Shown piece after piece: positions 28,992 through 37,140 of a stretch of 64,000 bases of DNA. Source of the DNA: Puniceicoccales bacterium (GTDB lineage: Bacteria; Verrucomicrobiota; Verrucomicrobiia; Opitutales; UBA9783); assembly GCA_031258545.1 (NCBI GenBank), contig JAIRMU010000015.1, positions 12,761 to 76,760 on the forward strand. Direction: 5' to 3'. How positions within the stretch are numbered: position 1 is the first letter of the stretch; each line of letters starts with the position of its first letter. The notes below the pieces were generated by a model. That model did no database searches. It saw only the letters and a list, made by a program, of their open reading frames with translations, and was not told the origin of the DNA. A program made the position numbers and the translations under genes.

Positions 28992-29049
28992 AATTCTTTT
29001 TTAATCGCTTTCTACGACAAATCAAACATAAATCACATTTTTACGTTCC

Positions 29050-29092
29050 TTGACAAAATTGTCTTGCAAATAACTTAAATTATTTTTAGACT
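29050..29092 (+). promoter_or_regulatory. Array promoter copy 1
   Basis: TTGACAAAATTGTC-TTGCAA-N17-TAGACT; ATG follows after 6 nt. Confidence 0.7.
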
Positions 29093-29098
29093 GCTTTT

Positions 29099-30727
29099 AT
29101 GGCTATCAATGCAACAGGGGTAACACAAGTTACCCATCCGATTACGAGTACACCAGGTGCAAATGATACCGGTAGCGTTACAAAAAATCTAACCTCTACT
29201 GCAGGCGTGCCCCAACAAGACCAAGCAACATCCGCATTATCGGATGCCACAAAGCAAAAACAAAGACAAATTGCCCTAACAAACCAACCCAAAACAGCTG
29301 TGGCACTTAATCTTTTGTTAGGTGAAGTACAGCAAGGAGTAAAGTATAAACCAGTGCAGATCGAAAAAACATTGTTGGAAGACATGCAACAAAATCCTCT
29401 TCGCAACCTTTTAGGTGCTAAAATAACTTTCAATATTGATCCTCAAAATTTACTACAGCAACAAAAAGACAACATAGATCATGATATAGCGTGCGTAGAA
29501 CGATGGCTGTCTGGCATTCCTCATTGTTCGCCCAAGCAACAAGGTAAACTATGTGCCGGACTGGGTGAACGAATAAATGGGTCCCCCTATCAACCTGAAA
29601 TATTGGCACTTCTGAATCAGCATGCTACAAATAACCCACAAATTGCAGCTACTAGAGATGCCTACGCAGGTAAACACAGCGAGCATATTACAGGAGAATT
29701 TTGTCAAAAATTAAGTGCAGTTTTAACAGAACCAACGCAGGAAACGCAGGTCACACCCATGCAGGCCAAACTTGCATTTATCGAGCAATTCAATGGGGCA
29801 CAAAGTTTAGAGAATAAAAGCGCCACCCAAATACGAAATGAACAGGCGGCTATAGAATCTCTATTAAAAAAAGATGATCTTACACCTTCAAATCGCGTAT
29901 TTTTACAACAGTTATCCTTGGCATACGAAATAAAGTTGAACGAAAATAATCCAAAGAAGATGGTAGAACTCGCTTCACAGTTCGCAGAACAAGAAGTACC
30001 ATTCTTGCGACAGATGGTTCAGGTGGCTCAAAATATTAGTCAAACGAACACTATGTCGGAGGCGCAAAAACAAAGAATATTGGATGCCCAAGATATAACT
30101 GATATATCAGCCAGGATATGCGATGCGATGTTCCCTAGAACAATGGAAGCTGTCAAGATGCCGAAGTTCAAAACTAAAGGAGATGCCTACTTAAAAATAT
30201 ATGGTAATCATGTAACGCAAGGAGTTATGCGTTTTAACAGCTTAATGCAAGAGATGGTAAAAAAAACACTAGCATCAGACCCTGAAACGGTAAAACGAGT
30301 AGGTGACGAGCTCAAAGGATATATAAATTTATTCTCATCGAATACAGCTTTATATACAGCCCGTGTCGAAGAAGCCTCTACAAAAGAATTACAATCCTTT
30401 AATACAACAGGCTTAATCAATGCAAACGACGGTAGTTTTGCCGAGTTTGACAAACAGCATTCACTGGACATCTTGAAGGGATTTTCAACAAAAACATTAC
30501 AATCTCTCGTTGAACGTGGTCAAGAACTCAGCAAGCAACCAAAGGCTAACACAACAGAGTTTCGAAAATCATTTGAAGTTGTTTTACGGTATGCACCTCT
30601 TCCGGAAGACCAGCGAGAGAGGCAACAAATGTTTGGGATCTTAACACAAGGTATTCAGTGCTTCCCCCAGAAAATGCAAAAGGAATTAGGCAGCATTTTA
30701 CAGAGTCGGATCACGCCATCTGCCTAA
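29099..30727 (+). CDS. Array gene E1 (542 aa): orphan paralog, candidate T3SS effector
   Basis: S/T/P-rich N-terminus, no Sec signal or TM segment; central/C-terminal module (TQIRNEQAAI...LFSSNTALYTARVEEASTKELQSFNTTGLI) is shared with E5. Confidence 0.75.
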   Translation: MAINATGVTQVTHPITSTPGANDTGSVTKNLTSTAGVPQQDQATSALSDATKQKQRQIALTNQPKTAVALNLLLGEVQQGVKYKPVQIEKTLLEDMQQNPLRNLLGAKITFNIDPQNLLQQQKDNIDHDIACVERWLSGIPHCSPKQQGKLCAGLGERINGSPYQPEILALLNQHATNNPQIAATRDAYAGKHSEHITGEFCQKLSAVLTEPTQETQVTPMQAKLAFIEQFNGAQSLENKSATQIRNEQAAIESLLKKDDLTPSNRVFLQQLSLAYEIKLNENNPKKMVELASQFAEQEVPFLRQMVQVAQNISQTNTMSEAQKQRILDAQDITDISARICDAMFPRTMEAVKMPKFKTKGDAYLKIYGNHVTQGVMRFNSLMQEMVKKTLASDPETVKRVGDELKGYINLFSSNTALYTARVEEASTKELQSFNTTGLINANDGSFAEFDKQHSLDILKGFSTKTLQSLVERGQELSKQPKANTTEFRKSFEVVLRYAPLPEDQRERQQMFGILTQGIQCFPQKMQKELGSILQSRITPSA

Positions 30728-34563: not shown

Positions 34564-34569
34564 AAAACT

Positions 34570-37014
34570 GTGTCTGGTCCAATATCAGCTTCTGGTGATT
34601 TATCTCCACCAATCACGAACGATCTCTCATCGTCGAACCTCGTAGGGAAAGATGATGCGGGCCGTTCAGTTGTACAAAACTCAGAGCCTATAGTACTGTC
34701 CTACGATACGTTCGTTACGATATGCCGAAACTCTTTCGGCGGTAGACCACTAAAAGCACTCTGCGAGCCGGCAGCACAAGTACATAATCATCAGGTGCAA
34801 CAAAATCCATGTTCTGCCACAACGAATGAACCCGCTCTGGCCAACAGTACAGAAAACCCACATCCATCCCTCGATGCAATACGCCGGCACTCTTTTAGCG
34901 GTAGATTATCGGAAACAGCGCAAACAAACCCACAGAACAAGACAGACGCTCAAAAACCGGAAGTGTCGCAAGAACAATATCGCAGCGATGCCGAAAGCTT
35001 TTTAAGATCAGCCAACAAGTTCCATGAAGTGCGAGCCCAGTATGAGGGGCAAAGTGGTATAGGTAAGTATTTACCTAAGAACCGGCACCGAGCTGCAATG
35101 AGTGCTGCACACCAGGAACTAGGCCAACAAATTCAAAACCATCAATTTTCACAGGATCCTCAATATAACAGAAAGATGGTGAGTTTATGGCTGGCAACCG
35201 CGAGCGATCTTCCCCCCAATGCGCAAAAGGCAATATTTGCTCTGATTGCTTCAAAACTAACCGACTGTCCGTATCAACCAGAGGTTCTGACATTGTTGAA
35301 TAAACAAGCTAAAGATAACCCACAAGTCGCAGCTATTAGAAATACTTACGTAGACTCAAAACAAGATTCCATCACAGAAGATTTTTCCTCGACTTTAAAT
35401 ACAGTTTTAAAAGGGTCCATGAAAGAAAAAACTAATTTCATCGCACAATTTGAGGAAGGGAACCAAAGTTTTGAGAACAAAAACACTACCCAAATACGAA
35501 ATGAACAGGCGGCCATAAAAGCTTTATTAGCAAACAATGATCTTACACCTTCAAATCGTGTATTCCTACAACAACTGTCTCTGGCATACGAAATAAAATT
35601 AAACGAGAATAATCCTAGACAAATGATAGCACTCGCTTCACAGTTCGTGGAACAAGAAAAACCATTGTTACAGCAGGTTGCTCAAAATATTAGTCAAACG
35701 GAAGGAATATCGGATGCACAAAAACAAGAAATATCGGATGCCTGTGATATGGCCGAAATAGCAAGTAAGATATGCAATGCGACATTCCCGAGAACAAAGG
35801 AAGCTGTTGACATACCCAAGTTCAAAACTAAAGAAGAAGCCTATTTAAAAATATATGGTAATCATGTAACGCAAGGAGTTATGCGTTTGAACAGCTTAAT
35901 GCAAGAGATGAAAAAACAAGCATTTGAACCAGAACTAAAAGTAGTTAATCGAGGACAACCGAACGCAAAGCTAATGGTAGGACTAGTTGCCAACGAGCTT
36001 CAAGGATATATAAGTCTGTTCTCATCGAATACAGCTTTATATACAGCCCGTGTCGAAGAGGCTTCTACAAAAGAATTACAATCCTTTAATACAACAGGCC
36101 TAATCAGTCCAAAAGACAGCGGGTTTATCGAATTCGATAAAAAGCATTCGCTGACATCTCTGACAGCATCTCCAAGTGAAAATCTTAAATCCTTGCAAAC
36201 AATCACCGACCAACTCAGTCAAGCTCAGTCAAAGTCTCAAAAAGCACAATTGCAGAATCAATTTGCAGCCATTATAAAACACACCCCCATTCCGAACACT
36301 TCCCCCGAAAACCAGCAAATATTTTTAGCCTTACTGAAAGGCATTTATCAATGTCCTCCCAATAATCAACCGGCATTACTTCATGCTTTGCACGATCAAT
36401 TGCAAAAATCTGTCGAGCAAGCCAATCCTGCATCCGAGGTAAATAAGTTATTGCTGCAACAAATGAACTTGGGAATCGAGGCCATGGGGCTCGGAAATGA
36501 TCCCCAAAAGCTCATAAAGATAGAAAGACAAATTTTATCAAACTGCATCCATTATTTAACAAATCAGCTAAATTCTCCCATTGATAACCAACACTGTCAA
36601 GAATTACTCACGGCCGCAAATATATTTGCACAAATGGCTGCCGCCATGATTCAAATACCTCCTGCTGCTGTCAACCCACCATATGCTAGCAAAGATGAAG
36701 CACTATTAATGCTCCACACACAATTCTCCCAAGATATTACTCGCTTGCCTCTCTTAATGAAGGAGATCGCTAGAGATGTTGAAAAGGATGACCAAAACCA
36801 TTTACGGCACGCTTTGGAAGAATTGAAAACCGTTGCGGCACATATGATACCTATGTTAGAACTTGCACAAGCAAGAGTCGACCGCATGACATTGAAAGAA
36901 ATTAATACGGTAGGTACAAATATCATTTCAGCTGCCTCACCTAGAACACAACCAACCGATGAAAAATATGGCATCACTCCAGAAATGCGGCGGCAAGCAG
37001 GAGGCAACAATTAA
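34570..37014 (+). CDS. Array gene E5 (814 aa, GTG start): chimera of E1-type and E4-type modules, candidate T3SS effector
   Basis: GKDDAGRSVVQN motif; middle part matches E1, C-terminal part matches E4. Confidence 0.78.
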   Translation: MSGPISASGDLSPPITNDLSSSNLVGKDDAGRSVVQNSEPIVLSYDTFVTICRNSFGGRPLKALCEPAAQVHNHQVQQNPCSATTNEPALANSTENPHPSLDAIRRHSFSGRLSETAQTNPQNKTDAQKPEVSQEQYRSDAESFLRSANKFHEVRAQYEGQSGIGKYLPKNRHRAAMSAAHQELGQQIQNHQFSQDPQYNRKMVSLWLATASDLPPNAQKAIFALIASKLTDCPYQPEVLTLLNKQAKDNPQVAAIRNTYVDSKQDSITEDFSSTLNTVLKGSMKEKTNFIAQFEEGNQSFENKNTTQIRNEQAAIKALLANNDLTPSNRVFLQQLSLAYEIKLNENNPRQMIALASQFVEQEKPLLQQVAQNISQTEGISDAQKQEISDACDMAEIASKICNATFPRTKEAVDIPKFKTKEEAYLKIYGNHVTQGVMRLNSLMQEMKKQAFEPELKVVNRGQPNAKLMVGLVANELQGYISLFSSNTALYTARVEEASTKELQSFNTTGLISPKDSGFIEFDKKHSLTSLTASPSENLKSLQTITDQLSQAQSKSQKAQLQNQFAAIIKHTPIPNTSPENQQIFLALLKGIYQCPPNNQPALLHALHDQLQKSVEQANPASEVNKLLLQQMNLGIEAMGLGNDPQKLIKIERQILSNCIHYLTNQLNSPIDNQHCQELLTAANIFAQMAAAMIQIPPAAVNPPYASKDEALLMLHTQFSQDITRLPLLMKEIARDVEKDDQNHLRHALEELKTVAAHMIPMLELAQARVDRMTLKEINTVGTNIISAASPRTQPTDEKYGITPEMRRQAGGNN
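36386..36498 (+). repeat. 113-bp perfect direct repeat, copy 2
   Basis: Identical to 33826-33938. Confidence 0.9.
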
Positions 37015-37097
37015 CTAAAAACAAATTACGTTATTTAATCTCTTTTTTAATTTCTTTCTGCGACAAATCCCACGTAAAACACGTCTTTTCATATGCA

Positions 37098-37140
37098 TTG
37101 ACCAAATTGTCTTGCAAGTGTCGTAAATTGTTCTTAAACT
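37098..37140 (+). promoter_or_regulatory. Array promoter copy 6
   Basis: TTGACCAAATTGTC-TTGCAA-N17-TAAACT; ATG follows after 10 nt. Confidence 0.68.

Follow-up and report, generated by a model that had tools for sequence, protein, structure and literature searches.

A promoter-like module with a fixed 17-nucleotide spacer precedes each gene of an orphan gene array in Puniceicoccales

Results

The gene array between fabZ and oppA

We analyzed a stretch of 64,000 nucleotides (nt) from a Puniceicoccales bacterium (assembly GCA_031258545.1, contig JAIRMU010000015.1, positions 12,761 to 76,760 of the forward strand), which is termed the window in the following and whose numbering is used throughout, and we focused on an upstream element that occurs before each of six same-strand genes in the region 29015-37140. 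This gene array is bracketed by fabZ-fabI, encoded on the minus strand, and by an oppA-like gene, which is followed by a gene for a RodZ-like helix-turn-helix protein:

27742-28605, minus strand: fabI, beside fabZ
28536-28991, minus strand: fabZ, bordering the array on the left in every related genome
29099-30727, plus strand: array gene 1, 542 amino acids (aa), orphan, middle part resembling gene 5
30741-30955, minus strand: dead 5' fragment of fabZ, 81% identical to 28766-28991, upstream of element copy 2 and array gene 2
31058-31663, plus strand: array gene 2, 201 aa from ATG 31058
31793-32749, plus strand: array gene 3, 318 aa
32940-34439, plus strand: array gene 4, 499 aa, C-terminal module in common with gene 5 (64% identity)
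34570-37014, plus strand: array gene 5, 814 aa, GTG start, gene 1-like middle part and gene 4-like C-terminus
37151-38494, plus strand: array gene 6, 447 aa, final gene before oppA
38578-40185, plus strand: oppA-like gene for a solute-binding protein, bordering the array on the right in every related genome

The array paralogs are 14-48% identical as proteins and show a mosaic pattern. Pfam and NCBIfam searches assigned none of the six proteins to a family, and an exact look-up of the gene 4 product in public assemblies recorded no identical product. The closest matches of gene 2 are genes of about 200 aa in related genomes (J1 in L004, Ncb2 in L200, and Cc1 in L001; 35-43% identity), and gene 6 shares just 31-38% identity with its positional counterparts in other genomes. 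Besides the stand-alone fabZ, the window encodes a second FabZ domain that is fused to LpxC (451 aa; 47520-48875, minus strand).

Six copies of the element in the window

The element copies, all on the plus strand and each ending directly before the start codon of its array gene, are as follows:

29019-29098, plus strand: copy 1, A-tract 29055-29060, -35 box TTGCAA 29064-29069, -10 box TAGACT 29087-29092, 6 nt to ATG 29099
30973-31057, plus strand: copy 2, -35 box TTGCAA 31018-31023, defective -10 box TATTAC 31041-31046, 11 nt to ATG 31058
31712-31792, plus strand: copy 3, -35 box 31757-31762, -10 box TAAACT 31780-31785, 7 nt to ATG 31793
32856-32939, plus strand: copy 4, -35 box 32901-32906, -10 box TAAACT 32924-32929, 10 nt to ATG 32940
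34490-34569, plus strand: copy 5, palindrome GACAATATTGTC 34523-34534, -35 box 34535-34540, -10 box TAAACT 34558-34563, 6 nt to GTG 34570
37067-37150, plus strand: copy 6, -35 box 37112-37117, -10 box TAAACT 37135-37140, 10 nt to ATG 37151

The pattern TTGCAA-N17-TA(A/G)ACT was found on the plus strand at 29064, 31757, 32901, 34535, and 37112, and the variant of copy 2 at 31018. With one mismatch allowed, the window contained seven matches, compared to 1.49 +/- 1.13 in 100 dinucleotide shuffles, none of which reached seven. The two additional matches lie on the minus strand without the rest of the element, one of them (42507-42535) inside the open reading frame of an S-adenosylmethionine synthetase. 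A weight matrix of 45 columns scored the six copies with 53-69 bits, while nothing else in the 64-kb window exceeded 12 bits. The mean pairwise identity of the six copies was 0.79 in the core (positions -16 to +28 from TTGCAA) and 0.69 in the region from -70 to -17, as compared to 0.50-0.53 in adjacent coding DNA and 0.44 in shuffled sequence, with copy 3 being the most divergent.

These data bear out the description given by the original prediction, which had been made from the letters of the same DNA: six copies whose TTG(A/G)(C/T)N motifs start at 29050, 31004, 31743, 32887, 34521, and 37098, an exact 17-nt spacer in all of them, a TATTAC in copy 2, a AAATCACATCTTT-like block further upstream, which we found in six of six copies, and conservation of the element although the coding regions share little. 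CRP/FNR-like or IHF-like sites in the AAATCACATCTTT block were by-eye half-site or near matches that are not conserved across the copies, and were therefore rejected. The distal block furthermore contains a direct repeat CAAATC(C/A)CA with 11-bp spacing (at about -81 and -70; 34489-34508 and equivalents in the window); this repeat, which overlaps the presumed divergent promoter of fabZ, is confined to copies that stem from the fabZ-proximal unit.

The same locus in related genomes

Relatives of the array proteins were rare: a word-indexed search yielded seven, and 19 were found among 1.84 billion representative proteins. All named relatives are hypothetical proteins from metagenome-assembled genomes of Puniceicoccales, and several others are unnamed JGI proteins. 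Judging by their isolate names, the relatives may come from termite-gut metagenomes, which could not be confirmed, and a literature search on the clade and on the source of the related assemblies returned nothing on the element. The contigs of the relatives show one and the same locus, with fabZ-fabI on one side, oppA, a rodZ-like gene, a gene for an EamA transporter, and metK on the other side, and two to six or more family members between fabZ-fabI and oppA. The array is a turnover hot spot, as gene number, gene order, and mosaics differ between the window and the related loci L001, L003, L004, L143, L169, L199, L200, and L201. Matching array members of different genomes are 31-60% identical as proteins, compared to 86-92% for the flanking oppA and fabZ.

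From six related Puniceicoccales assemblies we obtained 24 canonical copies of the element, to which two copies in L201, a seventh locus, and two degenerate copies are to be added. Core identity among nearly all of the 24 copies was 0.70-0.92 (lowest value 0.61), with means of 0.79 within genomes and 0.76 between genomes. Paralogous cores are hence as alike as cores from different genomes, while the paralogs show near-random similarity in their flanks and coding regions. The final array genes of different genomes share 20-38% protein identity, with third-codon-position identities of 0.33-0.55; for the flanking oppA, the corresponding values are 86-91% and about 0.74 (third positions mostly 0.72-0.80 for oppA and fabZ together). 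The whole 107-nt spacer between fabZ and gene 1 (28992-29098) is conserved in five genomes. In the internal copies, the distal half of this duplicated spacer, which is the half of the fabZ promoter, decays to an identity of 0.57-0.60, versus 0.78-0.82 in the proximal half.

Both degenerate elements retain the layout in which the promoter stands directly ahead of the start codon. One of them (L004:2300-2353) has lost about 12 nt, with a TGACA block 18 nt from a TAATTT that stands 8 nt before ATG, and the other (L200:1490-1550) reads TTCGCA-N18-TAGAAT-N7-ATG without the upstream blocks. L201 has only two array genes, and in one case (L201:12354-12857) a canonical element with ATGTCT is joined straight to a 167-aa protein that corresponds to the C-terminal module of genes 4 and 5 of the window.

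Conservation follows the anatomy of a promoter

Column conservation was measured over 23 distinct copies. The -35 box was TTGCAA in 23 of 24 copies and TTGCGA in the remaining one (column identity 0.99), and the spacer measured 17 nt in all 24 copies of the six assemblies. Within this spacer, positions 1-6 were conserved to 0.57, whereas positions 7-17 (TAAATTGTTTT) reached 0.86. The -10 hexamer averaged 0.82, with T1, A2, A4, and T6 at 0.9 or above and positions 3 and 5 at 0.4 and 0.6; its variants were TAAACT (12 copies), TAGACT (5), TAAAAT, TATACT, and TAAATT (2 each), and TATTAC (1). Upstream of the -35 box, an AAAATT tract at positions -9 to -4 from TTGCAA had a column identity of 0.89, and indels of 1-2 nt were found upstream of about -45. 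The six nt after the -10 box were near random (0.36). Overall, the changes per column were over-dispersed, with an index of dispersion of 4.7. Such an uneven pattern is the footprint that is expected of a sigma-70-type promoter, unlike the uniform decay that would follow a duplication. The original proposal of a housekeeping-type promoter before every array gene stands on the constant spacer, the near-invariant TTGCAA, and the T1-A2-x-A4-x-T6 pattern. As cTTGCA-type -35 boxes also precede the rodZ-like gene and the gene of tRNA-Val, the -35 box fits the housekeeping sigma factor.

Other sigma factors were considered. A sigma-54 promoter (GG-N10-GC; TGGCAC-N5-TTGCA) was rejected, as the TTGCA that is present has no GG at a distance of 12 nt on its upstream side; the TGACA-like block that comes closest misses the sigma-54 register by 2 nt and reads TTCACA in relatives. 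A sigma-28 promoter of the FliA/WhiG type (TAAA-N15-GCCGATAA-like) was rejected because the TAAA of the element is not followed by a GCCGATAA-like box; a gene for a FliA/WhiG-type sigma factor lies in the window (8051-8866, minus strand).

A function at the RNA level found no support. Rfam gave no match in 28000-39000 at E <= 1, and the fold z-scores of the six copies ranged from -1.5 to +1.2, without any stable or conserved fold, so the element appears to act as DNA. We found no terminator-like sites on the plus strand between the array genes, and no recombinase, inverted-repeat site, or hairpin at the element. An inverted repeat TTTACG-N28-CGTAAA around the -35 box was discarded because its arms do not co-vary (Cc1 has TTTACG with TTTAAA, and copy 3 of the window has TTTACA with CGTAAA).

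A short distance between the -10 box and the start codon

Between the -10 box and the start codon lie 6 nt in five copies, 7 nt in six, 9 nt in five, 10 nt in seven, and 11 nt in one copy. A Shine-Dalgarno core (GGAG, GAGG, or AGGA at -20 to -4) was absent before all six array genes; it precedes 4 of the 47 other genes of the window, the genome thus being poor in Shine-Dalgarno sequences. Some Verrucomicrobia are listed among the bacteria in which Shine-Dalgarno sequences are scarce (PMC10783764). The original prediction had overlooked this distance of 6-11 nt without a ribosome-binding site, although a transcription start 6-8 nt behind TAAACT, as it expected, implies a 5' end that coincides with the AUG or lies next to it. 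If transcription starts some 7 nt downstream of the -10 box, the first base of the mRNA would be the A or G of the start codon, or this codon would be preceded by a leader of at most about 5 nt. Judged from promoter geometry only, the array genes are probably transcribed into leaderless or near-leaderless mRNAs with leaders of 0-5 nt.

This arrangement is not restricted to the array. A pilT-like housekeeping gene keeps TTGACA-N17-TA(G/A)AAT-N6-ATG in four genomes, which indicates that a leaderless architecture is used elsewhere in the lineage. The probable divergent promoter of fabZ on the minus strand, TTGATT-N16-TA(A/G)AA(A/G)-N6-ATG (TAAAAA in the window), occupies the distal part of element copy 1. 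The sequences suggest that leaderless genes may be widespread in this lineage. In several housekeeping genes, a -10-like box ends up 6-8 nt away from the start codon on the upstream side (for example 24702-25823, minus strand; 38578-40185, plus strand; 28536-28991, minus strand).

The dyad is not a conserved part of the element

According to the original prediction, a GACAA..TTGTC dyad directly at the -35 box serves as the operator of a dimeric regulator. In copy 5, the sequence GACAAT/ATTGTC (34523-34534) is indeed a perfect 12-bp palindrome that abuts TTGCAA, and four of the six window copies (1, 2, 5, and 6) have 4-6 of the six dyad pairs, with 5 of 6 in Ncb1. This part of the claim stands, but the symmetry is not conserved. 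Across 22 copies, the six pairs were complementary in 11, 15, 6, 18, 21, and 1 copies, and only the trivial AA/TT pairs were kept, because they are simply the A-tract. Most copies of Cc175 and Gx481 read TTCACAAAATTA(T/C)C, with 2-3 of 6 pairs. The palindrome is best taken as a feature of the window genome and of Ncb351, and not of the element, that is, as a local accident, and the copies do not support a dyad operator that is conserved for binding a dimeric regulator.

The conserved sequences show no symmetry; they are ACAAAATT, ahead of the -35 box, and TAAATTGTT, within the spacer. The two form an imperfect direct repeat 21 bp apart, which corresponds to two helical turns and thus to the same face of the helix, and the conserved ACAAAATTNNC block ends with the last base before TTGCAA, so that it abuts the -35 box. 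The AAAATT tract and the TAAATTGTT block are conserved beyond the needs of a plain promoter and most likely constitute an UP-element-like or curvature feature or a site for a putative trans-acting factor. No regulator gene linked to the array was found at any locus; the neighboring helix-turn-helix protein is RodZ-like.

The element is private to the array in the sequences searched

The original prediction expected further copies upstream of other effector-like and type III secretion genes. The window encodes parts of a non-flagellar type III secretion system, with apparatus genes in separate clusters and SctV, SctU, and SctT above the NCBIfam cut-offs for the secretion families rather than the flagellar families:

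20108-20380: sctS, non-flagellar type III secretion
20380-21180: sctT, 176 bits (NCBIfam cut-off 163)
21185-22273: sctU, 419 bits (NCBIfam cut-off 358)
55130-55588, minus strand: gene for a SicP-like chaperone
56549-56893: gene for an SctY-like chaperone
56890-58992: sctV, 899 bits (NCBIfam cut-off 692)

Such a non-flagellar system is notable for a genome of the Puniceicoccales (Verrucomicrobiota). The matrix scan, which covered the 64-kb window, revealed no further element copy, including the regions upstream of sctS, sctT, sctU, sctV, and the two chaperone-like genes, and no half-copy was found before the secretion or chaperone-like genes, nor any convincing sub-motif there or at other places in the window. 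A sub-motif match at 18012 (AAATTAACTTGCAA) is due to chance and has no -10 box at legal spacing.

The related assemblies were covered by a strict DNA pattern, which recovers about 70% of the known copies and which was scanned over 185,579 species-representative genomes. True elements were detected only in Cc175_bin121, Gx481_bin184, Pcl387_bin165, and Ncb351_bin56 (GCA_031283895.1), where they adjoin fabZ or sit on short contigs that start or end in the element and run into oppA. Matches in L170 (Opitutales) and L148 were chance hits, and a metagenome pattern scan, with no true element in 120 stretches among the matches listed, was uninformative. Within the sequences searched, the element is private to the fabZ-oppA array in a small uncultured Puniceicoccales clade; a regulon that reaches other effector or type III secretion genes finds no support in the matrix scan or in the strict-pattern hits in four genomes, all of which lie in this array.

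The view that the array genes are effector-like remains plausible, given the secretion system in the window and the predicted N-termini of the proteins. Residues 2-31 of the array proteins contain 21% Ser, 12.5% Pro, and 9.5% Thr, and are often followed by a GKDAAGRS(I/V)TQN-like motif; the proteins are predicted to begin with a disordered, Ser-rich N-terminus without a Sec signal, as is characteristic of type III substrates. The AlphaFold model of gene 3 has a mean predicted local distance difference test score (pLDDT) of 67, with residues 1-72 disordered (pLDDT < 50) and an all-alpha, repeat-like remainder. Compared with the solved structures in the PDB, the model gave no significant fold match, only generic helical repeats (E >= 0.015, template modeling score <= 0.28). 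N-terminal composition and disorder, together with the presence of a type III system in the genome, make the array proteins reasonable candidates for secretion, and it is plausible that they are type III substrates.

Discussion

A probable promoter module for each array gene

We regard it as probable that each array gene has its own sigma-70-type promoter in a module of about 75 nt, from which leaderless or near-leaderless transcripts would arise. The spacer is fixed at 17 nt, whereas between 6 and 11 nt separate the -10 box from the start codon, which means that the geometry is fixed only where a promoter needs it. That the module is under constraint is supported by the uneven column pattern, by paralogous cores that are about as similar as orthologous ones, by the divergence of the genes behind them, and by the restriction of spacer decay to the distal half.

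The module would be organized as ...AAATCAYATCTTTACGTT-N4-6-ACAAAATT-N2-C-TTGCAA(-35)-N6-TAAATTGTTTT-TAAACT(-10), with transcription beginning on, or within about 5 nt of, the AUG or GUG, and with one mRNA per gene. During growth of the array, the module would have been copied along with the genes, and one of these duplications still bears a dead piece of fabZ. It would then have been held near one consensus, mainly by purifying selection on the promoter positions and to some extent by homogenization within genomes, while the coding regions diverged and recombined into mosaics. The outcome would be a shared but independent expression of orphan proteins that resemble type III secretion substrates.

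Several observations weigh against a selected, leaderless promoter. TTGCAA and TAAACT each match the Escherichia coli consensus at only four of six positions, which is why a consensus scanner did not list the sites of the element, and the GTG start behind copy 5 belongs to the start codons that are poor leaderless starts in E. coli. The conservation itself could partly be inherited. The dead fabZ fragment upstream of array gene 2, which has an equivalent upstream of the second array gene in Ncb351_bin56 (L200 502-684), marks an old tandem duplication, whose unit extended from inside fabZ through the first array gene, including the 107-nt spacer. The core of copy 2 is 81% identical to that of copy 1, and the co-duplicated dead fragment is also 81% identical to its source; the corresponding values in Ncb351 are 86% and 85%. 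As the core of copy 2 is no better kept than dead DNA, carry-over suffices to explain this pair of copies. An identity no higher than that of neutral flanking DNA, named in the original prediction as the sign of mere duplication carry-over, was thus found for copy 2, and not for the other copies. Orthologous fabZ-proximal copies (0.79-0.86) are barely above the near-neutral third positions of fabZ (0.72-0.87). Moreover, canonical elements persist before broken genes (L169:129-241 with a frameshift; L004:5716-5810 at 5754, with a stop after 17 codons; L003:4882-5111); these broken array members are either recent pseudogenes or assembly errors. Finally, genome-specific variants occur, such as GTTCT, common to copies 4-6 of the window, and ATTGGC, present in the two copies of L201, and such shared variants point to homogenization between copies and not to selection alone.

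These last findings are also the ones that favor an element without a function of its own, which would then be carried over by duplication, with gene conversion or unequal crossing-over keeping the copies similar, and would look like a promoter only incidentally. The equal similarity of copy 2 and the dead fragment to their sources, the elements before broken genes, and the genome-specific shared substitutions fit this idea, and the contigs of related assemblies break at the element, which therefore behaves as a repeat. We nevertheless consider this explanation quite unlikely, since it does not account for the promoter-like unevenness, which ranges from the -35 box over -10 positions 1, 2, 4, and 6 down to the linker behind the -10 box, for a 17-nt spacer that stays constant while flanking distances change, for paralogous copies that are as similar as orthologous ones despite near-random flanks and coding regions, or for the decay of the distal but not the proximal half of the spacer. 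It is similarly improbable that the module is mainly a homology anchor for recombination, by which a head of promoter, start codon, and secretion signal is swapped between bodies. This idea is compatible with a promoter function and agrees with the mosaic proteins (such as gene 5), with array content and order that differ where the flanks are about 90% identical, and with the fusion of element, ATGTCT, and 167 aa in L201. However, the boundaries of the protein modules do not coincide with the element, neither a recombinase nor an inverted-repeat site nor a hairpin was found there, and 75 nt at about 78% identity are a poor substrate for homologous recombination.

The model of the original prediction, in which the dyad is the operator of a dimeric class II activator that controls an effector regulon of orphan genes and secretion apparatus, appears unlikely to us. 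The position of the dyad directly at the -35 box and its good pairing in window copies 1, 2, 5, and 6 and in Ncb1 speak for it, as does the fact that conservation exceeds the hexamers (A-tract and spacer block), which leaves room for a bound factor. On the other hand, the outer dyad pairs are kept in only 11, 15, and 6 of 22 copies, the conserved part being the asymmetric ACAAAATT, neither a copy nor a half-copy precedes the secretion or chaperone-like genes of the window, the strict-pattern hits in the four related genomes all lie within the array, and no regulator gene travels with it. Very unlikely, in our view, is the remaining alternative that the module is transcribed as an unstructured, Shine-Dalgarno-independent leader, with a start further upstream or read-through from the previous gene. 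The scarcity of Shine-Dalgarno sequences in the genome, the absence of plus-strand terminators between the genes, and an A/T-rich region predicted to be unstructured would be in line with it, but an RNA leader would explain neither the invariant 17-nt gap nor the TAnAnT pattern, the segment next to the start codon is the least conserved and variable in length, and no other -35/-10 pair at legal spacing lies upstream, as the spacing of TTGACA-N20-TAAATT is too long.

Returning to the promoter module, a more far-reaching speculation, which we rate as rather doubtful, is that recombination in one hypervariable locus re-attaches a portable head for expression and secretion, made up of the module, the ATG-Ser start, and the Ser-rich N-terminus, to different protein bodies, so that the array would serve an uncultured verrucomicrobial symbiont as a cassette system to diversify its secreted proteins. 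In this case, the in-phase AAATTGT repeats that flank the -35 box could be the site of a lineage-specific factor that switches the array on together.

If the proposed leaderless promoter is correct, the module provides a sequence tag by which expressed genes can be recognized within a family of candidate secreted proteins that evolves very fast, and it would add an example from the Verrucomicrobiota to the bacteria that use leaderless genes. With about 75 nt, it is a compact, testable promoter from a phylum whose promoter architecture is almost unstudied. The present evidence establishes no new regulatory principle and no genome-wide regulon.

Comparison with known systems

The element belongs to a known kind of feature, namely the conserved upstream modules of paralog or effector families. 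Well-known boxes of type III and type IV effectors are the hrp box (HrpL) of Pseudomonas syringae, the PIP box (HrpX) of Xanthomonas, the tts box (TtsI) of rhizobia, the MxiE box of Shigella, and the PmrA box of Legionella and Coxiella. Like these boxes, the array element occupies a fixed place before dissimilar effector-like genes and would serve their common expression. Unlike the array element, the known boxes are dispersed in the genome, also precede apparatus or chaperone genes, and are served by a sigma factor or activator that has been identified, whereas all element copies found are confined to one tandem array; the element precedes none of the secretion genes of the window, has housekeeping-type hexamers, and has no regulator gene linked to it.

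Leaderless genes with a -10 box directly before the start codon occur in Actinobacteria, in Deinococcus, and in the cI gene of phage lambda. The array genes share with them the TANNNT box 6-11 nt before ATG or GTG and the absence of a ribosome-binding site; they differ in that their presumed leaderless status is derived from geometry and in that some copies would have a leader of 3-5 nt. To our knowledge, leaderless initiation has not been documented for this clade.

The A-rich UP element of strong sigma-70 promoters has its proximal subsite at about -46 to -38. The AAAATT tract occupies positions of about -44 to -39, adjoining the -35 box on its upstream side, and a second AAATT follows 21 bp downstream on the same face of the helix, in analogy to UP elements and phased A-tracts. 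The stretch between -47 and -57 (TTTACGTTCGTT), however, lacks the A/T richness of a full UP element.

In Borrelia, the cp32 paralogs carry an upstream homology box and the erp operator regions. There, as in the array, the non-coding 5' region is better kept than the coding region, selection and recombination act together, and the family would be co-expressed as a whole. The array element comes from a different organism, has a different sequence, and belongs to a chromosomal tandem array rather than to plasmid paralogs.

The term terminal reassortment has been used for type III effectors (PMC3136466, PMC3071791). Here, joining would take place among the members of one local array, and secretion is a property that the proteins are only predicted to have. 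As in terminal reassortment, a common 5' regulatory and N-terminal region is joined to different C-terminal bodies, which is what the mosaics of the array and the L201 fusion fit.

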